Source: Eledone cirrhosa | Lineage: Eukaryota | Reading direction: 5' to 3' | DNA length: 64,000 bases | NCBI GenBank assembly: GCA_964016885.1 | Contig: OZ024741.1 | Location: 178,126,001 to 178,190,000, forward strand | Shown here: positions 3,351 through 60,020 of the stretch, in pieces | Position numbering within the stretch: position 1 is the first letter of the stretch | How the letters are laid out: the number at the start of each line of letters is the position of its first letter | Notes under the pieces: model-generated | What the model was told of the DNA's origin: nothing | The model's database searches: none | What the model saw: only the letters and a program-made list of their open reading frames with translations | Translations under genes and position numbers: made by a program

Positions 3351-3552
3351 AATAATAATAATAATTGTTTCTACTTTAGGCACAAGGCCAGCAATTATCC
3401 AGTGCATTACTGGTACTTTATTTTATCGACCCCGTAAGGATGAAAGGCAAAGTCAACCTCGGCGGGATTTGAACTCAGATCGTAAAGGGACGTAACTATG
3501 CTGGAAAGCATGGCGTCCGACCAACCACCGATACTGCCAATCCACCGCCCTT
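3351..3552 (-). mobile_element. tRNA-derived SINE (family S1)
   Basis: Reverse complement of the copy at ~32120-32300; A box TGGCAGTATCGG, B box GAGTTCAAATCCC, core ttatcgaccccgtaaggatgaaaggcaaag, (TTA)n tail. Confidence 0.8.
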
Positions 3553-3840: not shown

Positions 3841-6800
3841 CTACAGGCGCATACTCAGAGCGGGCTCGTTCACTTCGACCAGACTCGCCACTTTCACCCA
3901 CCTTTCAACAAACTTACTAGAAGACAGCTGATCTTCCTCCATACTGATTTTCTTCTTGAAGTAAAACTTGACAAAGTTAATCAGGGATTGGCCGAAGAGG
4001 AAATTGTCCGTCTTCAACCTTTTAAACCTTGTCCACCACACAATTTCTTTCGCCATGTCCACCAGGCAGATGAAAACTGCCGGCTCATCCTCCTCTTTGA
4101 AGGTGGATGGCGGAGCTATCTGCACAATGGACTCAGTCGATAACCGGATCCGTCCTACACGTGAGAGCAGCTGTTCAACATAGATCCACAAATCAGCAAT
4201 TCTCGGGCACTGAACGAGTGCGTGCAGGACGGTTTCGTGGCACTCCCACGCATCTCGAACAGGCGCCGCTGACAGCACCTTCGTGCCTGTAGAGATTATC
4301 CCTAACCGGCAACGCTCCCCGGTAGCACTGGCAGGCCAGGGATTTCTGGAAGTTGTTCATAGGCCCCGGTCTGAAAGTTCTCTGCGACGCCCAGAGTTTC
4401 GCCGAGAACTTCGTCGCTCTTTCCCTCCACTAGCCCTCTATAGAACGCCGAGGTGGATGTTCCACCGATACTAGTGCCCAGCTCGTATAGGCCGGTGAGC
4501 ACTTGGAGACATTTCAGCTTCCAAGCGCTATCCCTCGGTCTTTTCCTGATCCAGGACTGCAGCTCCGTCAAGGAGACGAGCTGGGGAAAAGCGCGGCTGG
4601 CAAACGGTGACCACACCTTTTCACCGTCAAGGAAGCACCAGAGATGTCGCAGCCTCAGCGCACGTTTGCGCATCATCAGCCACGGCATGCCTAGTCCTCC
4701 ACGCAACGAGTGTTGACATCAAATGGATCTTCTGAACATGGGAGAACGTCCCCTCCACATAAAGCGGAAGAGGAGGCGCTCCATTTTGGTCAGAGTTGGG
4801 CGGGGCAAGGTACGACGTTCACGCGGTAGCAGTTGACGGACGTTATCTGCGCATTCGCCACCCAAACTTTCAGTCGACAGCCGACCTTTCAGAGATAGCC
4901 TCCTCTCGGCCCATATCTGGGTGAGAAAGGCCACCCTGCTCGTCACCTCGCTCCAGTTTTTCTCCATCTGGAGGTCCAGACCGAACCAGATCCCGAGCAA
5001 TTTAACCGGTCCTTCTGTCCAGCGCCCCGCGTACCGAGCGCATGATGCTGAAAGGCTACGACAGGTGACCATTCACCCTCACAATCGAGCAGATGTCACT
5101 GTGCATCGCAGCGAGCCAGCCCCTAAAAACGGGTCTGAAGCCGGCCGCCTCAAGGACCTCAGCCAGGTACCGATGGTCGACCCTATCAAATGCCTTAGAT
5201 TGATCCAAGTTGATCAGGGCGCCACCCGTGCTAGGTTCCTTAACCACCCTCTCTATGATGTATCGCATGAGATGGAGGTTGTCGTGGATGGATCTGTCCG
5301 GGGTTGCGCATGTCTGCGCCATCCCTTTGCAAACACCTTGGCCAACATCTTAAACTCTGCGTTTAGCAGAGTTATGGGGCTGAAGTTTTCTATAACGTCC
5401 ATCTTGTTCGGGTCTTTTCTCAGCAGCGCCAACGCTCCCCGGCTCACAAAACTTGGAATGCTCGCATTCTGCTGCCACTTGCAGTAGACATCTGCGAAGA
5501 GTTTGACGAACAAGTCTGGCATGTGCGCATAAAGCTCGTAGGGCAGACCACCAAACTTGCCAATTTACCCCTCGTGCCGTCAGACATCGCACCCCGTATT
5601 TCACCTGCTGTTATCGGATTTTTGCAGCATTGCGCTGCGGTCGTCGAGAGCCCCGACAGTCGGTCGAGGTATGCACCGAAATACATACTCCGACCCGTCC
5701 CACCGCCGCTCCCGAACAATTGAGCAAAGTGCTGTTGAAAATCCGCACACATCTGCTCTTGTTCGAGCAGCATGCGCCTGTTTTGATCAGGAAAAGACCG
5801 AATTATGGACTTGTTGCCACGTCTTGCCTTCACCACCCGGGCCCATTGAACGGCTTTCACCCCCTCGTGTCTCAGAGCACCCGCTCTAGCTCTGACAATG
5901 CAGCCTTCGTGCTTTGCTTTGAAGAATTGGTCGAGTGCCAATCTTGCTGCAAGCATGTCGGTTGCGATGCCTGTCCTAAACGCCTCTTCTAGTTTTCTAC
6001 CTCTACTCTATTTTCCTCTATCACTACTCCTTTGCTAAACCTTATCGATTCTAATCTAATAGCCCTTTCAGGGTAAACCACCATCTATTGTTGACGATCG
6101 TACCTGTCAACGCACGGTTACCTAATTCGGTAATCCGGTCTCTGTAATCTCTGTGGGCCGGGAACGACGCGTTCAACTTCCAGTAGCCGGGATCTTGCCT
6201 ATGGAGCCTAATTCAACAGATCACAAAGTTGTGTTCCGTGTAGTCGACTACTTTAAACTCTGGACAACCTACACTAGCCTTATCTGTTTCCCTACAGAAT
6301 TCCCTATATAAATACAATCTGGATGACCCGATATGATTTGTCCATGTCCACATTGGCACATTCGGATAATCCAGTCGATACCTATCAGACAGTTCAAAGC
6401 GTCTGAGCAGGTTGTTGAGGCTTTTACACCCTCCTGGCCTGTCTACTAGCCCCATATAATCCCAGCGTGCATCTAAGATACCGACAAGTCGCCCACTAAC
6501 ACTAAAGAGCGGAACGTTACAAGAAAGGTCTCTAGACGTCTGAAGAAATCTGGCCGTCCTACCCCTGTTGGGGCGTAGACAGCTACTAGCCTGAAATCAT
6601 TGCCTTCGCTGCCGGTCACGTCCTGCACAACCAACTTACCCTCTGGGTCCAGGAAGATGGCCCGTATGGCGAGACCCAAGCCTCTCCGAAAAAGCACTGC
6701 CACCCCTCCCCCCGATCCTCGACGGCTGGGAGATGCGTATACATCGTAGCCGCCGAAGATTGGTGTGAAGGCTCGTACTTCGGAAATGCTGGTCTCGCTG

Positions 6801-25742: not shown

Positions 25743-25793
<51 letters not shown>

Positions 25794-25796
<3 letters not shown>

Positions 25797-26176
25797 GAAT
25801 GTATATATAGTGTATTTTGCAATACACTGTATGCTTAATTAAAAGCATTTCGAAGACCTTATGCTATTGTTTTAGAGTAGTGATAGTCTCACTTACTTTA
25901 ATTTTCAGCAAACAGGGGAGATAAAGCCGACAGGGCCATGTTTCGCATTTGTTGATGCTTATCAAGGCTAACTACTCCCCCTGTTTGCCGAAAATCATGG
26001 ATGTTTGATTCTTATAGAATTAGAGTAAATAATAAGGAACTGATTATACAGAGCGGTTGCCGGTCAAGCAGAAATTGAAAATTAGAATTGGTGCTTTGAA
26101 ATAGCTATATATATATATGAATGTATATATAGTGTATTTTGTAATACACTGTATGCTTAATTAAAAGCATTTCGAA
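25794..26176 (-). repeat. Retrozyme-like family R3, ~1.2 units
   Basis: Homologous to the 318-bp unit at 58226-59200; terminal redundancy of ~60 bp; starts in (TA)n. Confidence 0.8.
25925..25969 (-). ncRNA. Type I hammerhead ribozyme, U3-A8 variant
   Basis: agcc-TTGATAA-gcat caacaa atgc-GAAA-ca tggccc tg-TC-ggct. Confidence 0.78.
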
Positions 26177-27334: not shown

Positions 27335-28513
27335 AGGTATAACACTGGAAGGTAATATACGTAGTGATAGAGCACTCAGTCCATGGGACGATTACATAGA
27401 CACGGACTCATGCCACCCTCGTACTGTTTTTAGAAACTAATATCAGTACTAGAATCTCTAAACTCTCCTCTAATAAGGTATCTTTGACAGAGCCCCCCCC
27501 CCCCACACACACACACACTACTATAACACGGCGTTAGCTAACAGTGGCTTCTCGCTACCAATTACTTACTCCCTCCTCTAACAACAACAGCAATAGGAAA
27601 AGAAATCGTAACAATAGACAAACTATCTGGTTCTCTCCTCCCTTCTCACTCAACGTTAAAACTAATGTAGGAAAAATATTTGTTAGCCCTCTTAGATAGA
27701 CACTTTCCCATAGGTCACAAATACCGCTCTATCTTTAACAGATACAGAGTAAAACTAGGCTACTCCTGCGCTAAGAATATGAAGGCCCACATCACCAACA
27801 GTCCTAAGAGCGGCCCCCTGCCAGGATGTTCTTGCCGAAAGCCTGAAGATTGTCCCCTTCAACAGCAATGCAACACACCCGCTGTAGTTTATGAAGCTGT
27901 GGTCACTTCCAACCGACCAAATCAACCATAGAAGGTCAAATCTCATGTGGCTATGGCAGAGGGTCGATTTAAGGAACGCTTTCTGAACCATCAGTCACCC
28001 TTTAGGTAAGCGGACAAACGATCATCCACGAGGCTCGCGAGCCACGTATGGTCCCTCAAGGACTCAGTTATAGACTACTCCATTCAATGGAAAGTCATCA
28101 CTAAGTCCAAGCCATACGCAAGGGGCAATCCGTCTTGTGGACGATGTATTGAAGAAAAGATAAATATTCCAAGGATATTACGCAATAGAGATTACCTAAA
28201 TTCAAAAATGCATCTTCCAACATTGTCCACATCTCTGGAAAAACCTCTTGCATAACTACAAAACTCCAGATTGAATAACAACAACATTCTAATTATCTAA
28301 TCAACTCGAACATTCGTTCCCGGATATTCGCAGTTACCTCCTTTACACCTTTCGCCCGTGGTTTTGTATCACTTGGGTGAGGTGACCGTTTCTGCGCATG
28401 CGCGTTCAACGGTTGTTCTTCCTGTACAATATAACCAGTACCAGTCCGAGCTGAAGAACCGCATAGGGTGAAACAATTGATCTCGGTATGGTAAACTAAC
28501 TGTTGTGTTACTG

Positions 28514-28517
<4 letters not shown>
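27335..28517 (+). mobile_element. PLE-2 3' fragment (GIY-YIG), with pLTR and inverted pLTR piece at its 5' side
   Basis: IWFSPPFS.NVKTNVGK.F, CSC..CPL..C, VVY, F KERF.NH remnants; 27335-27395 matches 51660-51715 of a minus-strand solo pLTR. Confidence 0.78.
28446..28486 (+). ncRNA. Type I hammerhead motif (PLE-2 pLTR), cleavage triplet mutated
   Basis: ccgag-CTGAAGA-acc gcatag ggt-GAAA-caattg-AT-ctcgg; GAT stands where GTH is required. Confidence 0.6.
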
Positions 28518-28558
<41 letters not shown>

Positions 28559-28616
28559 TGTTGAGTATGTGTTGGTTGTTTACCTGTGCATGCATGTTTT
28601 CCTGTTCAACTTCTTA

Positions 28617-28673
28617 CTGCCTGATGAGGTCATAGTTGTTGAATAATGGCTATCACTGAAATGTATATAGCAG
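28617..28673 (+). ncRNA. Type I hammerhead ribozyme in a ~170-bp solo element between (TA)n tracts
   Basis: ctgc-CTGATGA-ggt..atagtt..ggctat..act-GAAA-tgtata-TA-gcag; homolog at 51521-51575. Confidence 0.78.
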
Positions 28674-28722
28674 CAAATATGAATAAACGAAGCTAATTTT
28701 AACCAGTTGACTTACACTTCTT

Positions 28723-28772
<50 letters not shown>

Positions 28773-28827
28773 GTGAGGTTTTTTTTACAAAATGAAAAAT
28801 AACCGAGGTGTCCTACACGAGTGGAAG

Positions 28828-29115
28828 TATAAAGAAAAAGGGATGAAATCGAAAATGCAACTGAAGTCTTATTTTTTTTAAAAATATATATATTTATTTG
28901 GTTCCTTTACCGGTTTCGCAGTTCTTCTGCTTTTCAAAAGGTGAGTTGAGATGGAGGGTCTGTGGTTTTCCTCACTGAGAAAAACCACAGACCCTCCATC
29001 TCAACTCACCTTTTGAAAAGCAGAAGAACTGCGAAACCGGTAAAGGAACCAAATAAATATATATATTTTTTAAAAAAATAAGACTTCAGTTGCATTTTCG
29101 ATTTCATCCCTTTTT

Positions 29116-29120
<5 letters not shown>
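28828..29120. repeat. Near-perfect ~290-bp palindrome of two inverted hammerhead-bearing pLTR ends
   Basis: Arms of ~145 bp centred near 28975. Confidence 0.92.
29009..29046 (+). ncRNA. Type I hammerhead ribozyme, U3-A8 variant (mirror copy on minus at 28904-28941)
   Basis: cctt-TTGAAAA-gcag aagaa ctgc-GAAA-ccgg-TA-aagg; palindromic stem III ACCGGT. Confidence 0.75.
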
Positions 29121-29158
<38 letters not shown>

Positions 29159-34841: not shown

Positions 34842-37185
34842 TTGGACATGGAAAAACATTACATCGGTATGTCCCTAAAGAATATACCTTTACCCAAAAG
34901 GAAGGATTACACTCTTGGAATGATCCAGCGCACCAACGATTTCATACGCCGCGTCAGATGGAAAACATTCCACTTCGACAAAGGACGTAAGGATTATACC
35001 GCGAACGCTGGAAAGAATACATATGGGTTCAACTCCTGTAAAAACCCACCCACTAACCCTCTACTGGACGCCTTCGAACAGGACTTACTTAAAATGGTCA
35101 TGAATACTAAATATAAGAGGTTCAAAACCAACAAGCTTCATAAAGACATGGATACCTTTCTAAACAAGCTGCGCACCACTAACGGGATTATTGTCAAAGC
35201 GGATAAAACATCTAACGTGTACACAATGGACATTAATACCTACCACGACCTTATACCGAAGGAATTACATAAAAAAATATAAGAAAACCAATAACAAAGC
35301 ACTACTTAACATCAACAAACAAGCACACCATATTGTCAAAAGTCTAGAACTTGAATATAGAACTGAGCCCATGACAACTTGCACCCCCACCTTTAATCTT
35401 AAGGACCACAAATTAGATTTCCTAGATAAACCCACTATTAGATTAATATGCCCCTCTAAGTCCGACATAGGTAAAATTAGCAAGCATATTTTAGATAGAA
35501 TAATAATACAATTAAGGAATAAACTAGTTATTAAACTTTGGGACAATACTAGCGACACAATTAAATGGTTTAATAGTATAGATAACAAAAATACCTCTAA
35601 CTTTATACAATTCGACATTAATGACTATTACTCCTCCATATCACCCGATACTCTAAACAAGGCACTAGAATTTGCGAAAGCCAACTCTGACTTAACCGAC
35701 GACGAAATAAACATTATCCTAGCAGCTAGAAAGACGATAATTAAATTTGAAAATAACTTTTGGATACGTAAGTATAGAATAGATAACTTTGACATAACTA
35801 TGGGTGCTAATGACTCAGCACAAGTTACGGATATTGTTGGTATATACATAGCCCACACCTTACATAATAAAGTTAGTTACCTTCAAGGCGGAATATATAG
35901 AGATGACGCTCTCCTATTAGTTAAAAACATGAATAAACAAAACATAGAACGAACCCGTAAGAGCATTAGAAGAACCCTAGATAGCCTTGGCCTTAAAATC
36001 ACCTACGAATATAGTACCAAAGTAGTTAACTTCCTAGATGCCACCTTCAACCTCAACACCCAAATTATCACACCCTTTCACAAAAACAATGAGAACCTCA
36101 CCTACATCCACACTAGCTCTAACCACCCACTATCTATTATAAGGTCCGTGCCACATAGTATATCACTTAGAATATCCCGCCTCTCATCTAACCAACAAAT
36201 ATTCGATCAACACGCTGAATACTACAACACTGCATTAGAACGGGCTGGCCACACCGACAAACTAGAATACATGGACCCACACAACCATAAAACACATAAC
36301 CACAGACACGCCAAACGCCCCACAAACACCCGCACACACGCACCTAGACCCCCTAATATTAACCACACCACAAATACAACAGCAACATCAAAGCAAAACA
36401 GAACACGGAGTAGATCTTACATTTGGTATAATCCTATTTTTAACTCTTCTATTAGCTCTAACTTACCTTCCACATTCTACAAAATTATAAAAAAACACTT
36501 TCCAAATTCACATAAATATAGTAGTATACTTAATACCAAAACAATTACACTATCTTATTCCACTGCACTAAACCTAGACGCACACATTAAGATGCTCAAC
36601 GCCAAAACACTCCGTAACAACAACACCCCAATCACTCAACACAATAATACACCTAATACACAACCACCCACTAACAATCAGTATGCACAAAACACACTCA
36701 CACACACATCCCAGCCCACCTATGACTTCACCACTGCCCATAACAGAAATTGTAATTGACACCCTCCAGAGACTTGTCCATTGAATAACGAATGTTTGCA
36801 TTCAAACCTAGTGTACAGGTGCTCGGTTGAGTCGGGCAACCAAACCTGGTACTACATAGGCAGCACTACAAACACCTTCAAAACTCGTTGGTACACGCAT
36901 CGTTACGCAATAAAGCACCACCAACACCGTTACGTAACGACTCTCGCCGACAAAATTTGGCACTTAAAAGGGAGTAACCGACAATACACCCTTAAATGGA
37001 CCAAACTCTCACATGCTCCTCCATACTGGAGTGGGATGAAAACGTGCCCGTTGTGTAATAATGAGCTCTTCCATATTCTAAGCTCAAGCCACCAACTACT
37101 CAACAACAAAATTGAAAGGTCAATTTTTTGCATGCATAAACTGAAATCGAAATTCTCACACTTCAAACCTTCAACCAAATCCTAA
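34842..37185 (+). pseudogene. PLE-3 RT + GIY-YIG ORF (one frameshift ~35270, one stop 36757)
   Basis: SLKNIP, IVKADKT, FIQFDINDYY, TMGANDS, IYRDDAL, VNFLDAT, SNHP, CNC..CPL..C, LVY..YYIGST..FKTR..H, CPLC..E. Confidence 0.92.
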
Positions 37186-44700: not shown

Positions 44701-45330
44701 TTTTCTTCAACGTTTCTTTTGCGTCATTTGCATTTAAATCCAAAGTTATATAAGGTTTCGTAGAGTATTTTAAATGAAACTATATTGTATCGCTTCGATT
44801 TCTTACTTTACATATGTTATTTCTCAAATTAGAATCATTTTTGTAAGTAAATTATTCTCTTATTTTTTTCTAACTTGGTTCACTAGAATATGTCTATGGT
44901 AGGAGACCACGTTCAATGGTGGGACTTAATTGAAGCATAATTTATTTCAATCTTAAACTTATTTTATCCATTATCACAACATAAACAAGACTTTAGATCA
45001 ATGTACCCTGACACACACACACCTTCACACTCTCACACCTTCACACTCTCACACACTCATATATATATATGTGTGTGTGTGTGTATTATTTAATATAATA
45101 AAGAGAGACAAACACAGATGTATATACATATATGCGTTCAAATCACAAGGGACCTAAAGCATATTGTATAAATCTATGCTTGAAGCGAAATCCTATTTCT
45201 TTTCTATTATAAGTTGATCCAACTTATGCAGCTTCATATGCAAATGAGATTAATCACCTCATTTACTCAGACGAGAAAACTATATATTCTCGGCTGTCTT
45301 CTAGTCCAGCAGTCGCAAGCAGTGGGAAGC

Positions 45331-45374
45331 ATCGTCCTGACGAAGGCCAGTTAAGCCTGAAATGCATAGACGGT
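45331..45374 (+). ncRNA. Canonical type I hammerhead ribozyme, solo
   Basis: atcgtc-CTGACGA-aggc cagttaa gcct-GAAA-tgca-TA-gacggt; palindromic stem III ATGCAT. Confidence 0.82.
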
Positions 45375-45660
45375 TGTCCCCTTTGCTTCTGCTGGACACC
45401 ACCAGAGGGCGTTAGCTCCCCCCCCCCCCGCCGGTGTTTGCATAGCTATGGCTTCCGCTATATATATAGGGAGTGTAACGTGCAGTTACTGTAGGTTCAT
45501 CCGTGTGACCACTGCCATTACCTCAGCGAGGTCCGACGAGCTTTTGATTCCAGAATCAGGCTAGATCAATACAGATCGAACCTTCAGCTGATCAGTAGCC
45601 AAATGTGCATTACTACCCAATAGACGTAATGAAGACATAACAAATTGTCCTTTTATTATG

Positions 45661-49355: not shown

Positions 49356-49978
49356 AAATATACGTATATGAGATTAGAGCAAACATCACGGGCGCTCTAT
49401 CTCAAACTTATTTCTGAAAAGCATTAGAAATACGCAACCGGTAAAAACTTAAAACCAAATCTGAATACTAACCAAAACATATTACTAAGTTTTACTTATT
49501 CCTAATTAAACTATTTTTCACTGGGAACAATTTGTCAGCATTTTCTTTTCTTTTTACCAGTATATATATATATATATATATATATTGTTATACTTTGGGA
49601 GGGTCACGTTGCCAATAAGAAACACACGCACCATTGCTTTCACTTCAATATATTATAATAAATTTATAAATTTAGGAATTTATAAATTTCCGGTTGGTTG
49701 GTTGGTTCCATAATCAGATGGTTGTTTATATATTGTCAAAGTTCTTTCGTCACACATTCTGTGACCTCTTCAGTGACTGGGGATTCTTTTCTTTGTTTTT
49801 GTGCCTCTCCTTTGTTCTGTACTATGCCATTTGGTTTCTGTGTGTGTGTTGTGTGCTCAGTCTGCGCATGCGCCACATCCGGGTGTCTGTGTGTGTTTAT
49901 ATTCGTTTATTTATTTGTTTATTTACATGATACAGGTTGGTTGTTTGTTCTATGTGCGTGTGTGTTTTCATTTTGTCC

Positions 49979-50641
49979 TTAATTGTAAGTTGTGATGTTG
50001 CTGTTCCACTCATATTTTCTATTTAATTTGGGTTGTAATTCTTTTATGTTTATTGCCTCTGTGATTTGTCTAAACATTGCGTCTTTTCTGTGTGTAGATT
50101 CTATTTTTATTTCTATGTTCTCTAATTTACCCTTATGTTCTATTTTAGCATGTTGGTAGAGTACAGATGATTCTTTACTATCTTGAAGGTCTCGCCAGTG
50201 TTCATTTATCCGTTCCCCTACACTACGAGCTGTCTCACCTATGTAACCTATATTTTTGTCTCTACATTGTCCTTCAGTACATCTTATGCTATATACTACA
50301 TTTCTAGTTTTACAGTTAATATGGGGGCTTAATTTACAGGTTATACATTTCTTATCTATACAGGGGGGTCTTTGAAAAGGGTATGTCTTGCTAATAAGTT
50401 TTTTTACGGAGGTATCTGGTCTTACTACTATCTTAATATTGAGTTTATGTTTATCTAGGGCCCTTCTAAATTTGTAAGCTAATTCACCTCTAAGGGTTGT
50501 ATCGATGAACATTACACTCTGGTAGTTATTGCTATCATACCATGAGTTTATTCTATTAGCCTTATTCCTAGTTCTTTCTATTATATTCCAAAATTTGCTC
50601 CTATACAAGGGGCAGGTCCCATTTGTGTCATTATTTACCAT
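49979..50641 (-). pseudogene. PLE 3' fragment: GIY-YIG endonuclease
   Basis: C..KKCITC..INCKTRNVVYSIRC..YIGETARSVGERINEH..S.LYQH..RQITEAINI..P.LN.K.EW. Confidence 0.82.
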
Positions 50642-51247
50642 TTTTTTCCCATTTGGTTCTGGCTCCTCTATACACTCTGATTTTATCTCTCTGATTGTAA
50701 CCAGAGAACTGCATACGGTGGAAGAAGTGTTGTATGTGTCTCTCTAGTTCTTCGGGGTTGCACATGCGGGACACGTTTCTCATCACCCGTACCAAATCCG
50801 CAATCAGTATGTTGATTTTGGTATGGTCCGAAACAGCTGAGTTTCAGTGGATCAGATATTTGGAAGTCATGGGTTTGGCATAATTGGAATGGAGGATTTG
50901 TTTTTTGTTATTAATGGTATCTAACCAGAGCTCTTTCAACGTGTTAACCAATTGCACTAAAGTGACACCACGATCTCTTTACATTATTGTTAACATTTGT
51001 ACTGTCTGATAAATAAAAGTGTTAGTATAAGAGGAAATATTTGCCAGTGGCTCTGTAAGGCAATTGGGTAGGTCTGCACAATGGTTAAATGCAGGTGTTG
51101 GTACGAATCATACGGCTGTCGATGTAAATGTTTTCCATATCCTGTGTTTATATGCACTACCTATTAATAGTCAATCAGCGTTAATGCTCCTTACATTCAA
51201 TTTAAAAACCTTCTATTGCGTAACTGTATTAAAAAGAGATTGTTTAT

Positions 51248-51311
<64 letters not shown>

Positions 51312-51520
51312 TAAAATAGATTGTTTCTACCGATATATATATAGAGAGAGTGATTTTGAGTATGTGTTGGTTGTATATCAACACCAAAGTATGCAGGCTG
51401 GTGCATGATTCCAGTTCTTCAGTAAAATAACAACCCAACCAGGAACTGGGCATATCAGAGTATTGACAAAATTATACACCTCAACAACATATGTACTTGT
51501 CTATACCGCGCTAAATCGGA

Positions 51521-51575
51521 CTGCCTGAAGAGGTCACAGCCAAAGAAGGCTGTCACCGAAATATATATATAGCGA
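51521..51575 (+). ncRNA. Type I hammerhead motif in solo element 51350-51615
   Basis: gc-CTGAAGA-ggt c acagcc aaagaa ggctgt c acc-GAAA-tatatata-TA-gc; same family as 28617-28673. Confidence 0.68.
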
Positions 51576-51651
51576 AGCTAAATTTTAAACATTTGACTTA
51601 TTTATTTTACTTTATTTTATATATATATATAAATATAAATAAATATGTATG

Positions 51652-51919: not shown

Positions 51920-51924
<5 letters not shown>

Positions 51925-54152
51925 AATATGAATATAAAATGAAAGTGCTTTTTTTAAAAAAGGAATTTATTAGGTATTGACATATGTTTCTGTAACAGAC
52001 GGAATACCTATGTACCGCTGCTTGCGTAATCATATAATGTTAGCAAGTATTCGATAGCAAATGTATAAACAGTTGTCACTTCTTCAGAGATTTCGGATAA
52101 ATTGGATAAAATCAGAAAAATTTATTTTGATATTACTATGGGTTCTAATGATACGGCAGAAGTAACAGATCTTGTGGGAATTTATATCACCCACAGACTA
52201 CAAGGAAAATTCAAGAATCTCCACGGTGGAATATACCGTGATGATGCGCTCCTATTAGTTAAGCATATGAATAACCAGAATTTAGAAAGGATGCGTAAAA
52301 ATATCAGAAAGCTTTTTAAGGAACTACGATTAAATATTACATTTGAATATAACCTCAAAGAGGTCAATTTCCTTGATGTTACTTTGAATCTCAATACAGA
52401 AACTATTAAACCGTTCCATAAACTAAATGAGAACCTTAAATATGTTAATACGAGTTCTAACCATCCACTCTCTATAATTAAATCCATCCATAGAAATGTT
52501 TCTCTTAGAATCTCCCGCCTGTCGTCCAACCAACAAACCTTCAAAGAACATGCCGAATATTATGATGATGCACTTAGGAAAGCCGGACACCTAGATAATA
52601 TAGAGTATATAGTCGAAGATCACCTAAACACCCAAAATAAATCCCATAGGAGTAGAAATAGCACAGAATCACTACCATACATACACTACCGCAATAGACA
52701 CAATAATAGTCGCACACCACCAAACAGAAGGCGATGTAAAGAGTATATTTGGTACAACCTGGTCTATAACAACTCTATTAAAACCAATCTACCCTCAAAA
52801 TTCTTTCGATTAGTTAAAAAATACTTTCCAACATCACATAAATATAATAAAATCTTAAACCCTAACACTATTCGACTTTCATATTCAACCGCCCGTAATA
52901 TTGAACAACATATAAAAAAGCTTAACGCAATACGGTTGTATAAACGCCTTCCAACACATAACAATACACGTAAAACACTAGCTATAACATCACAAAACAA
53001 CAAACAACATCCTGTCCTACCTAAGCAACCGCATCAATCCACCCATGACAATACAACAACGCAAAATTATAATTGTAACTCTGTCCAACCAGGAATGTGT
53101 CCGTTGAACAATCAGTGTCTTGAACACAACATCATATACAAATGTACTATCGAATCGGATAGACAGAAGTGGTACTATGTGGGATCTACAGCCACCTCCT
53201 TCAAATCACGCCTTTATAGACATCGTTACTCGATAAAACATGAACACCAGCGTTATGTAACAACACTCGCAGACAAGGCTTGGCAGCTGCGTGAAAATAA
53301 CCAACAATTTCACCTAAAATGGGATATAATAGCGTCTGCCCCTCCACGGACAGGAATTTTGTAAATTATATAATTTGGAATTATTTTGTATTATGAAATC
53401 CAAAAACATTTTATTAAATAACAGAATAGAGCGATCGTTATACTGTAACCATCGCTTAAAATCTACATTTTCATATTATAAATACTACCAGGATTGAATG
53501 CCTGTCTCCATCTCCGTTTGATTGTCAAAGTACATATTAACATTCTCTATTAGTCTTAATTCTAACAACTCTTCTATTATTTACCATTTAATATAAACTG
53601 CTATAGATAAAATGAGATTTCTGATTACTTAGTTCAATTCCCTAATGCATATACCAGCTGGCTACTAGCATTGATGATATTCAGTAGCAATCGAAATCTC
53701 CCCCTTCCCCAATTGACACTTTATAATTAATACTACTACACCAAATGACCAGCCCTGTCCACTGTCCAATTGGTCAAGTATAGATTAAAATTGGCACTCC
53801 CAAAAAATTCTTATTTAGATAAAATAAACCATTTACTCATTGTATTCTCATTAGAAACCCTTTATATACTTGTTTAGCAGTAAATTGAACTACCATCTGT
53901 CATATACTATCACCTCTCTTCTTCCTCTATTACTAATATAAATACTTCAATTTTTCTGATTTTATCCAATTTATCCAAAATCTCTGAAGAAGTGACAACT
54001 GTTTATACATTTGCTATCGAATACTTGCTAACATTATATGATTACGCAAGCAGCGGTACATAGGTAATCCGTCTGTTACAGAAACATATGTCAATACCTA
54101 ATAAATTCCTTTTTTTTAAATAAGCACCTTCATTTTATATTCATCTTTTCTA
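51920..54152 (+). mobile_element. PLE-4, 5'-truncated, with inverted pLTR (51920-52122 = reverse complement of ~53950-54152)
   Basis: The inverted repeat is directly visible; it is preceded by (TA)n. Confidence 0.9.
52123..53437 (+). pseudogene. PLE-4 RT + GIY-YIG (close relative of PLE-3)
   Basis: FDITMGSND, GIYRDDALL, VNFLDVT, SNHP, CPLNNQC, IIY..YYVGST..FKSR..H; frameshift near the C-terminus. Confidence 0.88.
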
Positions 54153-54259
54153 CATTTTCTCCGGAATATAATTTATACTCGTTGAGCAAACCTACACGTA
54201 CGCTGTTCATCTCTAACGTAACGATATATTATCACTACATTATTGATAACCTGAAATGT

Positions 54260-54302
<43 letters not shown>

Positions 54303-54625
54303 AGGGTTGACAGATCCAGCATATTTATCAATGCCAGTATATATATATATATATATATATAAACGGAAAAAATGAAACGAAATTTCATTTCCCACTCTTA
54401 GTACGGCTGTTACTTAAATATAAGTATGTACACGTACATACATATATGTATACAGACGTACAGTAGTATGTATATATGTATACATACATGCACACATATA
54501 TATATGTACGTATGGATTCACCGAACATTTATTATAATGCTCGGTGTGTTTGTAACCAAACATCCCGTATTAAGCCGTAGTGTCTAGCAACCATCGTTGC
54601 TCGTTTGTTCAACACTGACAAAGGA

Positions 54626-54668
54626 ACGCTGTACTAGTTTCAAGCTTATTAGCTATCGTCAGCAACGT
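54626..54668 (-). ncRNA. Type I hammerhead ribozyme (R1)
   Basis: acgttg-CTGACGA-t agct aata agct t-GAAA-ctag-TA-cagcgt. Confidence 0.85.
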
Positions 54669-54993
54669 ATGCCTTCCTGCCAGATTGTTGAACGTATATA
54701 CTTACCTTATGCATATTAACAGCTGAGTAGCCCAATTTGCATATCGAGTGGGTTAATCGGCTGGGTGCACCGAAAACGATAAACGGAAAAAATGAAACGA
54801 AATTATATGTGTACATACTTATATTTAAGTAACAGCCGTACTAAGAGTGGGAAATGAAATTTCGTTTCATTTTTTCCGTTTATCGTTTTCGGTGCACCCG
54901 GCCGATTAACCCACTCGATATGCAAATTGGGCTACTCAGCCGTTAATATGCATAAGGTAAGTATATACGTTCAACAATCTGGCAGGAAGGTAT

Positions 54994-55036
54994 ACGATGC
55001 TGACGATAGCTAATAAGCTTGAAACTAGTACAGCGC
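54994..55036 (+). ncRNA. Type I hammerhead ribozyme (R1)
   Basis: Intact core; two stem I substitutions. Confidence 0.8.
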
Positions 55037-55413
55037 TCCTTTGTCAGTGTTGAACAAACGAGCAACGATGGTTGCTAGACACTACGGCTTAATACGGGAT
55101 GTTTGGTTACAAACACACCGAGCATTATAATAAATGTTCGGTGAATCCATACGTACATATATATATGTGTGCATGTATGTATACATATATACATACTACT
55201 GTACGTCTGTATACATATATGTATGTACGTGTACATACTTATATTTAAGTAACAGCCGTACTAAGAGTGGGAAATCAAATTTCGTTTCATTTTTTCCGTT
55301 TATCGTTTTCGGTGCACCCGGCCGATTAACCCACTCGATATGCAAATTGGGCTACTCAGCCGTTAATATGCATAAGGTAAGTATATACGTTCAACAATCT
55401 GGCATGAAGGTAT

Positions 55414-55456
55414 ACGTTGCTGACGATAGCTAATAAGCTTGAAACTAGTACAGCGT
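55414..55456 (+). ncRNA. Type I hammerhead ribozyme (R1)
   Basis: Intact core, GTA triplet, palindromic stem III ACTAGT. Confidence 0.87.
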
Positions 55457-55657
55457 TCCTTTGTCAGTGTTGAACAAACGAGCAACGATGGTTGCTAGAC
55501 ACTACGGCTTAATACGGGATGTTTGGTTACAAACACACCGAGCATTATAATAAATGTTCGGTGAATCCATACGTACATATATATATGTGTGCATGTATGT
55601 ATACATATATACATACTACTGTACGTCTGTATACATATATGTATGTACGTGTACATA

Positions 55658-55741
<84 letters not shown>

Positions 55742-56168
55742 CAAATAACGAAACGAAATTAAATTTCGTTTCGTTTGTAACTCACTTTTGTATGACTGAC
55801 GCTTAAACAATTAAGTTAAAAATGTACATCCACATATGTATACTGAAATACTAGTATGCATATGAATACACACACGTATACATATGTAGATGTACCAAGT
55901 CTTTCACTGGTCACTTTACTGTGAGTGGCCAGCTATTCTGTATGTAAACACACATTTTTAACTTAATTGTTTAAGCGTCAGTCATACAAAAGTGAGTTAC
56001 AAACGAAACGAAATTTAATTTCGTTTCGTTATTTGTTTTTATCGTCTCCGTTGAACCGGTACGTACTCACACTCTATGCAAATTAGTCTGCCCACCACTA
56101 ATTTTCATAGAAAAAGCATATAACGATATGTGCTTTTACGATTCTCCAGAAAGGTCGGTAGATAGGTA

Positions 56169-56213
56169 AATATTGCTGATGAGTTGTAACAACAACGAAA
56201 CTAGTTCAATATT
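56169..56213 (+). ncRNA. Type I hammerhead ribozyme (R2)
   Basis: aatattg-CTGATGA-gttg taacaa caac-GAAA-ctag-TT-caatatt. Confidence 0.88.
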
Positions 56214-56634
56214 CCTTGTCTGGCTTTCTGGAGAATAGAGGAAAGGTGTTTCCTCAAAAACCAGTATGACTCTAAAAACCGGTTTGTCTGTGTGTTTACA
56301 TACAGAATAGCTGGCCACTCACAGTAAAGTGACCAGTGAAAGACTTGGTACATCTACATATGTATACGTGTGTGTATTCATATGCATACTAGTATTTCAG
56401 TATACATATGTGGATGTACATTTTTAACTTAATTGTTTAAGCGTCAGTCATACAAAAGTGAGTTACAAACGAAACGAAATTTAATTTCGTTTCGTTATTT
56501 GTTTTTATCGTCTCCGTTGAACCGGTACGTACTCACACTCTATGCAAATTAGTCTGCCCACTACTAATTTTCATAGAAAAAGCATATAACGATATGTGCT
56601 TTTACGATTCTCCAGAAAGGCCGGTAGATGGGTA

Positions 56635-56679
56635 AATATTGCTGATGAGTTGTAACAACAACGAAACTAGTTCAATATT
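56635..56679 (+). ncRNA. Type I hammerhead ribozyme (R2)
   Basis: Identical motif 466 bp downstream. Confidence 0.88.
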
Positions 56680-57034
56680 CCTTGTCTGGCTTTCTGGAGA
56701 ATAGAGGAAAGGTGTTTCCTCAAAAACCAGTATGACTCTAAAAACCGGTTTGTCTGTGTGATTACATACAGAATAGCTGGCCACTCACAGTAAAGTGACC
56801 AGTGAAAGACTTGGTACATCTACATATGTATACGTGTGTGTATTCATATGCATACTAGTATTTCAGTATACATATGTGGATGTACATTTTTAACTTAATT
56901 ATATATATATATATATATATATATTGTACAAGAGTGTTGTTTATCTTAGTTGTTACGGCGATGATAAGCAGGTGTTAGCCATCAAATCACTACACGTCAG
57001 TAGTTCATCCCAGGTAGGTGATATTGAGAGTATT

Positions 57035-57362
57035 CATTTATCAAATAATTGTTTCTACATTTGTCACAAGGCCAACAAGTACCCAGTGCATTACTGGTAC
57101 TTTATTTTCTGGACCCCGTAAGGATGAAAGGCAAAGTTAACCTCGGCGGGATTTGAACTCAGATTGGAAAGAGCCACAACTCTATGCATCAAAGCATGGC
57201 GTCCGACCTTCAACTGATACTGCCAATCCAGCACTCATTTATCAAATAATTTGTTCTACTATTGGCACAAGGCCAGCAAATTACCCAGGATATTACGGGT
57301 ACTTTATTTTATCGACCCCGTAAGGATGAAAGACACAGTTCACCTCATTTATCAAATAATGG
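57035..57362 (-). mobile_element. SINE S1 copy plus partial tandem copy
   Basis: S1 core and head at 57045-57232; a second 3' part at 57246-57345; cattt atcaaataat is repeated three times at the junctions. Confidence 0.75.
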
Positions 57363-57599
57363 TAGTTAAGACGGAATTAAATCACCATAAATGTTTATTG
57401 CATTATTCATATTTCTGTTACATGGTTATTCATGTGGCCTCGTCAAATGCTTACACGATAATTGGTTCAGCTATGCAATCATTGTGATATGCCGATGGCC
57501 ATGTAGGTCCGTCCATCCAGTAGAAGTGGTTCGGCACCACTATATATATATTTATGTATGCATGTATGTATGTGTGTATGTATGTATATATGTATGTCA

Positions 57600-58200
57600 G
57601 GTGCTACTGTTGGTGCTACTGGTAACATGTATCCCAGTACAACCTGTCTCATGGTCGGGTCGTTGGCGAATAAACTGGCAACCGCACCAAAGTTTCTTGG
57701 TGAGGAGGGTGACTTTGGACATCTTGCAGGACGAAAACAAAACCTGTCAAGGGGAAAAGGAGCTCTTAAGAGTCAATGGCCATCCAAAATCACCGGGAGA
57801 GATAACCCCTTAGCCTTTGTCAAGGCAGAATTCTAGGAGAAGAAAACTCTGATATAACACCTGCAACCCTGATGGTATCCAAGGATGTTGACTTGTTCTT
57901 GTTTTTGGTAAATATCATCTTGGTTAAGAGAGTGGGACTGGCTTTGTGCAGTGCCTTTGCTCACTATAAAAGCTTCACGGCAAGGTATTGCTTTACATCT
58001 GGAGATCTCTCTGCACCTGTCGTCACATGGTACCATGGGCCCAGCACTATGTGTCGATAATTGTCACAAGTGTAGTGTTTGTACCAGAGTTTTCAACTCG
58101 CTGGCTGGACTAGAAAGTCACACTCGTTCAGCGCATCGGTAGGTGTTCTCCTACATGGATATAAAGTAGTGGCCGTCCTCGAAAACGAGTTGGCAGCCAC
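57600..58200 (+). mobile_element. Internally deleted RTE-like LINE remnant with C-terminal C2H2 finger
   Basis: 5'-UTR-like taaactggcaacc.cacc; HKCSVCTRVFNSLAGLESHTRSAH near the 3' end. Confidence 0.45.
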
Positions 58201-58353
58201 CATATATATATATATATATATATATATGGAAGTATATATAATGTATTTTGCAATACACGTTATGCTTAATTAAAAGCATTTTGAAGACTGTATGCTATTG
58301 TTTTAGAGTAGTGACAAATTCACTTACTTTAATCTCAGCAAACAGGGGAGATA

Positions 58354-58399
58354 AGCCGACAAGGGCCTTGTTTCGCTTTTGTTGAAGCTTATCAAGGCT
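58354..58399 (-). ncRNA. Type I hammerhead ribozyme, U3-A8 variant (R3)
   Basis: agcc-TTGATAA-gctt caacaa aagc-GAAA-caag gcc cttg-TC-ggct. Confidence 0.8.
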
Positions 58400-58993
58400 A
58401 ACTACCCCTCCTGTCTACTGAGATTACTGATGTTATATTCTTATAGAATTCTAGTAAATATTCAAGAGCTGATTATACAGAGCGATTGTTGGTCAGGCAG
58501 AAATTAAAAATTAGAATTGGAGCTCTGAAATAGCAATATATATATGGATGTATATATACTGTATTTTGCAATACACTTTATGCTTAATTAAAAGCATTTT
58601 GAAGACCGCATGCTATTGTTCTAGAATGATATAAGAATATAAGATCAGTAATCTCAGTAGACAGGAGGGGTAGTTAACTTTGATAAGCTTCAACAAAAGC
58701 GGAACAAGGCCCTTGTCGGCTTATCTCCCCTGTTTGCTGAGATTAAAGTAAGTGAATTTGTCACTACTCTAAAACAATAGCATACGGTCTTCAAAATGCT
58801 TTTAATTAAGCATAAAGTGTATTGCAAAATACATTATATATACATCCATATGTATATTGCTATTTCAGAGCTCCAATTCTAATATTTAATTTCTGCCTGA
58901 CCAACAATCGCTCTGTATAATCAGCTCCTGATTATTTACTAGAATTCTATAAGAATATAACATCAGTAATCTCAGTAGACAGGAGGGGTAGTT

Positions 58994-59039
58994 AGCCTTG
59001 ATAAGCTTCAACAAAAGTGAAACAAGGCCCTTGTCGGCT
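58994..59039 (+). ncRNA. Type I hammerhead ribozyme, U3-A8 variant (R3)
   Basis: Same motif, with G-U closing stem II. Confidence 0.78.
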
Positions 59040-59218
59040 TATCTCCCCTGTTTGCTGAGATTAAAGTAAGTGAATTTATCACTACTCTAAAACAATAGCA
59101 TACGGTCTTCAAAATGCTTTTAATTAAGCATAAAGTGTATTGCAAAATACATTATATATACATCCATATATATATTGCTATTTCAGAGCTCCAATTCTAA
59201 TATATATATATATATATA

Positions 59219-59921
59219 TTAGGCTGCTCAGCCGTTAAGATGCATGAGGAAAGTATATACTTTCAGACGTTCAATCATCTTGCAGGAAGGTATACGTTGC
59301 TGACAATAGCTAATAAGCTTGAAACTAGTACAGCGTTCCTTTGTCAGTGTTGAACAAATGAGCAACGATGGTTACTAGACACTGTACTGCTTAATTCGGG
59401 ATGTTTGTTTCACAAACACACCGAGTATTATCGTAAATGTTCGGTGAATCCATACGTATATATATATATATATATGTGTGCATGCATGTATATATATATA
59501 CATACTACTGTACGTCTGTATACATATATGTATGTACGTATACACACTTATATTTAAGTAACAGCCGTACTAAGAGTGAGAAATGAAATTTCGTTTCATT
59601 TTTCCGTTTATCGTTTTCGGTGCGCCCGGCCCATTAACTCACTCGATATACAAATTAGGCTGCTCAGCCTTTAATATGCATGAGGAAAGTATATACTTTC
59701 AGACGTTCAATCATCTGACAGGAAGGTATACGTTGCTGACGATAACTAATAAGCTTGAAACTAGTACAGCGTTCCTTTGTCAGTGTTGAACAAATGAGCA
59801 ACGATGGTCGCTAGACACTGTACCGCTTAATTCGGGATGTTTGTTTACAAACACACCCAGCATTATAATAAATGTTCGGTGAATCCATACGTACATATAT
59901 ATATATATGTGTGCATGTATG

Positions 59922-59971
<50 letters not shown>

Positions 59972-60020
59972 CTACTGTACGTCTGTATACATATATGTAT
60001 GTACGTATACATACTTATAC
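59219..60020 (+). repeat. R1 subfamily, ~1.8 units (436-bp period), hammerheads at 59294-59336 (G8A) and 59730-59772
   Basis: Clearly homologous to 54804-55660, with shared diagnostic differences (gaggaaagtatatactttcagacg). Confidence 0.88.

Follow-up and report, generated by a model that had tools for sequence, protein, structure and literature searches.

Hammerhead-bearing tandem repeats in Eledone cirrhosa as likely non-LTR retrozymes with the insertion footprint of Penelope-like elements

Retrozymes, Penelope-like elements and the repeats of the cluster

In those passages of PMC7229834 drawn upon here, metazoan non-LTR (long terminal repeat) retrozymes are described as short tandem units of less than 50% GC that contain no open reading frame (ORF), that carry one canonical type I hammerhead ribozyme per unit, that exist in thousands of copies, that generate target duplications of more than 4 bp and that coexist with Penelope-like elements (PLEs). 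These traits are shared by three types of unit, R1, R2 and R3, clustered at positions 54361-60020 of a 64,000-nucleotide stretch of the genome of Eledone cirrhosa (assembly GCA_964016885.1, contig OZ024741.1, positions 178,126,001-178,190,000 of the forward strand), hereafter the window. Cleavage and circles have been demonstrated for metazoan retrozymes according to the same passages, whereas R1-R3 are known here from sequence alone. R2 units (466 bp) and some R1 units (up to 538 bp) are also longer than the 150-450 bp range given there, and neither inverted arms, fixed short and long ends nor (TA)n targeting, as seen with R1-R3, are described in those passages.

On the basis of co-occurrence and end homology, PLEs have been considered the 'likely' movers of animal retrozymes (PMC7229834, PMC7761336 and bioRxiv 10.64898/2026.07.22.740005, each in the parts consulted). 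Vertebrate retrozymes, the units of which, at 51-972 bp, span the lengths of R1-R3, were likewise judged to be PLE-dependent in the consulted sections of Li, Clavereau and Pollet (2026, bioRxiv 10.64898/2026.07.22.740005), in which no mollusc appears among the classes sampled. There, the evidence was co-occurrence and pseudo-LTR (pLTR) homology in Xenopus; here, by contrast, it is the insertion footprint, with no pLTR homology having been found. In PLEs, partial tandems, an inverted 5'-truncated copy, a one-sided tail and a bias towards (TA)n have been ascribed to the PLE endonuclease (Craig et al., 2021, PMC8557442, in part), and the endonuclease-positive PLEs of the Hydra and Neptune clades present the same partial tandems, inverted copy, one-sided tail and (TA)n target as do R1-R3. 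It is proposed that R1/R2 and R3 are likely, at a probability of roughly 0.8, to be non-autonomous retroelements (non-LTR retrozymes) moved by a PLE reverse transcriptase (RT)-endonuclease. Chlamydomonas has non-autonomous derivatives of PLEs arranged head to tail, and non-autonomous Chlamys elements, such as MRC1, generally share 3' ends with their partners (PMC8557442, in part). No such sharing was found for R1-R3, which also differ from the Chlamys elements in encoding nothing, in their unit of 318-466 bp and in their canonical hammerheads.

A literature search, with Repbase, Dfam and the supplement of a 2020 paper lying outside its scope, returned no description of cephalopod retrozymes, and the words 'hammerhead' and 'ribozyme' are absent from the O. 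vulgaris repeat paper. Titles and the starts of abstracts, with most subscription papers being out of reach, likewise revealed nothing on these families or on the insertion footprint.

The short ORF-less tandem units of 420/436, 466 and 318 bp reported in an earlier note on this DNA are real. The window contains arrays with periods of 420 bp (54809-55664; 99% match), 466 bp (55952-56900; 99%) and 318 bp (58621-59203; 96%), together with a second R1-type array of period 436 bp (59210-60020). Inspection of ORFs in these arrays revealed no coding frame, those of at least 70 amino acids representing read-through of TA repeats, and no LTR-internal region-LTR layout was seen in R1-R3 units, primer-binding sites and polypurine tracts not having been separately searched for. 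The GC content of the units is 38, 36 and 34%, i.e., below 50%. Where three families had been claimed, three types of unit are present, yet R1 and R2 are homologous over their full length (64% identity; z 12.9 with the core left out), and the units thus fall into two superfamilies, R1/R2 and R3. The scores of R3 against R1/R2 (z 2.4 and 4.1) suggest that it is at most distantly related to them; R3 units are 89-96% alike. A first look at the 3.0 Gb genome yielded 395, 727 and 1,225 candidates for the three units, and genome-wide counting of exact cores gave 40,322 for R1/R2 (control, 2) and 2,111 for R3 (control, 0). As read from these features, R1/R2 and R3 are new families of non-LTR retrozymes. 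The retrozyme reading of the earlier note held at every test made at this level, namely low-GC, ORF-less tandems, hammerheads of canonical architecture with compensatory changes, dispersed copies, target duplications of more than 4 bp and the presence of PLEs in the genome.

Predicted hammerhead ribozymes

A type I hammerhead descriptor detected six cores in 54361-60020, as compared to a mean of 0.005 (maximum, one) in 200 dinucleotide shuffles, and all six cut positions predicted earlier coincide with a hammerhead-like site. Direct inspection of the cluster revealed 10 hammerhead copies, two of which lie on the minus strand in inverted arms (predicted cuts at 54632 and 58358). At the gathering score, Rfam returned no match to the cluster. 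Below that score, whole-model matches of R2 to Hammerhead_HH9 reached 38.6 and 37 bits (cut-off, 52; E 2.8e-7), the inverted R3 copy gave a weak match (22.7 bits; E 0.035) and R1 was absent from the best 150 of 175 sub-gathering matches. Sub-gathering matches to miRNA families were rejected, as these derive from TA-rich hairpins.

The R1/R2 hammerhead comprises a helix I of 6-7 bp plus an extension, a helix II of 4 bp with a hexaloop and a helix III consisting of one A-U pair and the palindromic loop CUAG, corresponding to the dimer type. Hammerheads of this form are described as the canonical metazoan type, with activity in the dimer (Cervera and de la Pena, PMC4209133, in part). The one-pair helix III matches the description of axolotl HHR_Amex1 (one pair plus a palindromic tetraloop), and R1 helix II has a basal U.U like that of HHR_Amex2 (both in the PMC7229834 passages). 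In R3, helix III is of 4-5 bp and the core is the U3-A8 variant, present in 99 of the 100 R3 matches listed. The U3-A8 core is also that of the hammerheads of the Schistosoma PLE Cercyon (PMC4209133, in part), yet those are the minimal hammerheads of PLE ends, whereas R3 adopts the canonical fold. Of the paired stems I-III described earlier, the third is thus a true helix in R3 but only a single pair with a palindromic loop in R1/R2.

Although each of the three unit types carries one type I hammerhead, as had been noted, not all of the cluster copies are sound. Five of the 10 are intact, and a sixth (59035) carries a basal G.U in helix II. The other four are damaged, showing two helix I mismatches (55030), GGAA in place of GAAA (58717), CUGACAA (59330) and an A.C in helix II (59766). 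An 'active' retrozyme has been defined as two consecutive units with complete hammerheads (Li et al., 2026, bioRxiv 10.64898/2026.07.22.740005, in part). Among the window's R1, R1' (the array of period 436 bp), R2 and R3 arrays, only that of R2 contains two consecutive intact predicted ribozymes. Of the monomers predicted in the earlier note, that of 318 nt is hence unlikely to be released from the R3 copies of this cluster and that of 420 nt is doubtful from these particular R1 copies; release from R1' is likewise unsupported. The loci examined contain 122 and 67 cut-to-cut units, with overlapping loci being counted twice.

Compensatory swaps were seen among copies in helix II of R2 and R3 and in helix III of R3. 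When folded as circular monomers and compared with 30 shuffles each, the three units gave z values of -8.3, -11.6 and -5.6, with helices I and II being retained. In the fold common to R1 and R2, 19 of 95 predicted pairs show changes on both sides, some in helices far outside the ribozyme; in R3, only two of 87 pairs do so. This pattern of substitution indicates that the RNA structure of R1/R2 and R3 is under selection.

Insertion anatomy and the nature of the template

Insertions were surveyed at 90 top-hit and 60 positional loci. Their usual form is that of two arms joined head to head, with both 3' ends directed outward into (TA)n. These 3' ends are fixed, with a short and a long end lying, respectively, 217 and 273 nt past the predicted cut in R1, 228-233 and 302 nt in R2, and 140 and 166-171 nt in R3, and one end only bears a tail, of 26-74 nt (as compared to 30-40 nt in the PMC8557442 passages). 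The long-end motif is common to R1 and R2, and is found at 5,644 exact junctions on (TA)n genome-wide (control, 0); contigs from an independent public run likewise give way to TA at the positions of the short and long ends. Both flanks are (TA)n in 88 of 135 head-to-head insertions. Because most target sites are pure TA, they are uninformative for duplications, but at six less pure sites among the 135 (L032, L037, L038, L057, L062 and L156), target duplications of 12-13 bp overlap the element ends. The top-hit and positional loci had been chosen by a full unit or hammerhead and were so biased towards crossing of the cut; counts were accordingly redone on 134 arms picked by the long end alone, of which 131 could be aligned and three could not. 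An inverted partner of the same family accompanies 92 of the 131, and of the 87 partner ends not cut by the edge of the locus, 75 are short, none is long and 12 lie elsewhere. Some R2 and R1 arms (at L155 and L324, respectively) end in (CAT)n rather than (TA)n, with the flanks of L155 carrying the repeat in opposite orientation.

This organization is seen in the cluster itself, where three of the four insertions (R1, R2 and R3) begin with an inverted partial arm. That of R1 (54359-54804, minus strand; 1.06 units) has the long, tailed end (unit position 273) as its outer 3' end and contains an intact hammerhead with a predicted cut at 54632. The R1 direct arm (54806-55667, plus strand; 2.05 units of 420 bp) terminates at the short end (217), with cuts predicted after 55030, at the mismatched helix I, and 55450, where the hammerhead is intact (GUA). 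A (TA)39 tract (55660-55737) serves as target common to the R1 and R2 insertions. The R2 inverted arm (55735-55954, minus strand; unit positions 83-302), with its long end facing outward, lacks a hammerhead, and the R2 direct arm (55952-56900, plus strand; 2.0 units of 466 bp), ending short (228), has two intact ones, predicted to cut after 56206 and 56672 (GUU). The R3 inverted arm (58218-58625, minus strand; 1.3 units) directs its short end (140) outward and carries an intact U3-A8 hammerhead (predicted cut, 58358; GUC), whereas the R3 direct arm (58621-59206, plus strand; 1.8 units of 318 bp) ends long (171), its hammerheads lying at 58717 (GGAA; likely dead) and 59035. R1', an R1 subfamily about 90% identical to R1, is a solo arm (59210-60020, plus strand) with a short end and two damaged hammerheads (59330 and 59766). 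The spacer between R2 and R3 (56925-58200) consists of common SINE-like (short interspersed element) repeats, also present at 3360, 32119 and 43409 in the window, and a further copy of the R3 family, 86-87% identical and with a hammerhead predicted to cut at 25929, is found at 25787-26176 on the minus strand.

The four adjacent insertions described earlier are present, but the notion of a special 'system' was rejected in favor of mild co-targeting of (TA)n. New insertions, flanked by (TA)n, share targets and therefore cluster. The window contains 33 tracts of (TA)8 or more. Two exact long ends within 6 kb have a P of 6e-5 under a uniform model, with some 30 such windows being expected genome-wide, and an R1/R2 piece lies within 3 kb of five of 35 R3 loci (P 0.012).

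These observations can be assembled into a pathway. An array would be transcribed and its hammerheads would cut, those of R1/R2 as double hammerheads through a palindromic ACUAGU helix III and those of R3 probably also as monomers, with the resulting 318-466 nt monomer likely being ligated into a circle. The footprint shows a staggered cut of about 12 bp in (TA)n or AT-rich DNA, which a PLE endonuclease would make. It also shows that copying begins 140-302 nt downstream of the ribozyme cut, at two fixed positions that each offer a brief TA-like microhomology; as there is one start from each target end, the element has a 3' end on either outer side and a tail on one of them. Copying usually crosses the cut and often exceeds one unit, with a circle or an uncut multimer as template, and the footprint indicates that the two cDNAs are finally joined head to head at variable points.

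Of the 131 aligned arms picked by the long end, 93 extend across the predicted cut; 66 are longer than one unit and 21 longer than two. Copying past the cut and beyond one unit thus points to a circle or an uncut multimer, and not to a cut linear monomer, as template. A circle, proposed as template for PLEs as early as 2014 (PMC4209133, in part), is the probable choice. It is rather unlikely that, with the elements and their PLE mobiliser unchanged, the template is a multimeric linear transcript that is cut partly or not at all, with the hammerheads being slow or otherwise used and no circle being needed. Such a transcript would explain the crossing of the cut equally well and could be supplied by the arrays of 8 to about 30 units present in the genome; moreover, helix III of R1/R2 is weak and the minimal hammerheads of PLEs cleave poorly in vitro (PMC4209133, in part). 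Still, most insertions measure less than two units (21 of the 131 arms are longer), and in the absence of a circle few of them could give rise to longer copies; the closing rod and ribozyme helices also covary. In addition, arm 5' ends are concentrated in the 26 nt downstream of the predicted cut, with 7 of 39 in R2 (null, 2.1; P 0.003) and 20 of 113 in R3 (null, 9.6; P 0.0008), but not in R1 (5 of 62; null, 4.1). This 26-nt interval was picked after R3 had been viewed and also equals one strand of the long helix I rod, such that the pile-up is accounted for either by run-off at a cleaved end or by stalling; arms ending exactly at the cut (-2 to +3) number one, three and four, too few to judge. 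Contigs from four public runs of unrecorded kind contain the R2 head-to-tail joint, in which a tandem array and a circle are indistinguishable.

Opposite arms of an insertion are more alike than are separate insertions, with mismatches of 0.59 vs. 1.55% in R2, 1.53 vs. 3.68% in R3 and 3.48 vs. 5.40% in R1. Subfamily variants are found in both arms more often than in one, both in R2 (25 vs. 9) and R3 (74 vs. 49), and 15 private variants are common to both arms. Such similarity fits the two arms having been copied from one template molecule.

Long arrays, sited at G000:C1:5738327-5752443, near 45.63-45.68 Mb of C28 and near 20.41 Mb of C12, include one of about 31 R2 units that terminates in an inverted arm; unit divergence in long R1 arrays ranges from 0.4% (L023) to 6% (L019, L022 and L024).

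Neighbouring Penelope-like elements and the search for a partner

The window contains two candidate mobilisers. PLE-A (51922-54260, plus strand) is a 5'-truncated autonomous PLE of the Hydra clade that encodes the C-terminal part of the RT and a GIY-YIG domain (ORF 52069-53364); the terminus of its inverted arm (51922-52138) is the short end and that of its body the long end, with a tail of 105 nt. The clade was assigned from motifs that were read by eye in the ORF of copy L097 against PMC8557442: RWK, DKT, a CxCX5C linker, CxxC and CxH in the endonuclease and the (TA)n target. PLE-B (49560-50790, minus strand) is a 3' fragment of a Neptune-type PLE with a CX4CxxC linker, a GIY-YIG domain and a minimal hammerhead in the 3' untranslated region (UTR). 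Neither fragment was recognized by Pfam, although open frames in the two families reach 783 and 995 amino acids, respectively. Short and long ends are paired in four resolved PLE-A pairs and in four of five PLE-B pairs, with PLE-B having a tail of 57 nt. Genome-wide, PLE protein matches came to 78,501 first-look candidates of Hydra type and 46,030 of Neptune type, many with open frames at 93-95% identity, indicative of a very large, recent PLE expansion in this genome. The 3' UTRs of five PLE-A copies (53364-54260 in the window; L094, L097, L100, L117 and L119) yielded no CUGANGA...GAAA hammerhead, although the Hydra clade is described as having canonical hammerheads throughout; a CUGAAGA half-core lies near 53985.

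Other PLE-related sequences in the window include broken Hydra-type copies at 27450-28515 (PLE-C), with a hammerhead near 28455 that has a palindromic CAAUUG helix III, and at 35788-36600, as well as two short TA-flanked PLE-like 3' fragments (28558-28728 and 51345-51630) with hammerhead cores at 28621 and about 51527, the two fragments having their first 20-odd bases in common. A fourth short element, R4 (28766-29122), is a perfect palindromic insertion with short and long ends in (TA)n and a U3-A8 hammerhead on both strands (helix III palindrome, ACCGGU); R4 recurs in L170, L192, L205 and L270. Another short hammerhead element lies between TA tracts at 45085-45660 (core, 45337; helix III palindrome, AUGCAU).

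It could be argued that the R units are only the pLTRs or 5'-truncated ends of autonomous PLEs located elsewhere in the genome, a case that the earlier note had itself raised. The units do show every PLE insertion feature, 24 of 57 Xenopus retrozyme families matched known transposable elements, nearly all of these being PLE ends (bioRxiv 10.64898/2026.07.22.740005, in part), and only a minority of the 78,501 and 46,030 PLE protein candidates was covered. Yet upstream of the 3' end, the sequence re-enters its own 318-466 bp unit, and none of the 131 arms runs on into a same-orientation PLE ORF or UTR in comparisons that employed the proteins of two PLE families and the DNA of five PLE fragments. 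R hammerheads are, moreover, canonical (4 bp helix II, hexaloop, extended helix I), unlike the minimal type of PLE-B. Together with the lack of homology to the ends of PLE-A, PLE-B and PLE-C, this argues that the units are not plain pLTRs and renders the argument quite improbable. A DNA homology search for a partner, using PLE-A, PLE-B, PLE-C and other hammerhead fragments, gave low-complexity matches only. R units may have derived long ago from a PLE that lost its internal part. Lastly, although long R1 arrays with mixed, shared variants (L019, L022, L024 and L025) recall satellite DNA spread by unequal crossing-over or rolling DNA circles, with the hammerheads as relics, and local DNA amplification probably contributes to such arrays, satellite spread is highly improbable, given that paired 3' ends at fixed positions, a tail on one side, 5' ends that vary, target duplications of 12-13 bp and RNA-level covariation would not be expected and that the dispersed copies contradict it.

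Several points weigh against the proposal that R1/R2 and R3 are non-LTR retrozymes moved by a PLE enzyme. No homology was detected between R1-R3 and the UTRs or ends of PLE-A, PLE-B and PLE-C, these being few of the many PLE families. At one top-hit R3 locus (L065), both ends are long. Among the shared variants of R1, 55 are confined to one arm and only 14 are present in both, and units of long R1 arrays differ by up to 6-8%, a pattern that needs later decay, local amplification or mixed templates. Gene conversion or a homogeneous multimeric RNA could equally yield similar arms. As for the ribozymes, the predicted cut in R2 follows GUU and the R3 core is U3-A8; in Xenopus, only one of nine predicted retrozyme dimers was cleaved in vitro (bioRxiv 10.64898/2026.07.22.740005, in part).

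Mixed-family junctions and what the elements offer

Head-to-head junctions between different families number six among about 190 loci, and an end of PLE-B or PLE-C takes part in four of the six. The long-end sample contains four mixed-family junctions (L225, L268, L270 and L298), each of which is long on both sides, as compared to none of the 87 same-family partners; the long end of L225 was deduced from extra sequence beyond the PLE-C end of the window. These junctions may be chimeric insertions or may reflect later deletions between neighbouring insertions. Their use as a pointer to the partner PLE was rejected, as L204 pairs a short with a long end and L192 is disrupted.

One tentative explanation, against which the odds run, is that a single ribozyme-made circle is primed twice, at two fixed TA-like sites, with two reverse transcriptases chasing each other round. 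The first primer would use the long site and the second the short one, generating the one-sided tail, inverted overlapping arms and copies longer than a unit. If one RNA is so primed, then arms from two different RNAs should both end long. The mixed junctions hint that a short end is produced when priming occurs twice on a single RNA, although later deletions could give identical junctions.

The ~40,000 predicted hammerheads added here correspond, very roughly, to 0.6% of the genome (40,322 x ~440 bp). Thousands of young copies bear the PLE insertion footprint itself, a line of evidence for PLE mobilization different from those offered previously. R elements of 318-466 nt are handy substrates for a PLE in vitro system, the next task according to Craig et al. 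(PMC8557442, in part). If true, double priming would account for the PLE tail and inverted pLTR generally, and the small, young R elements would make PLE priming testable in vitro.

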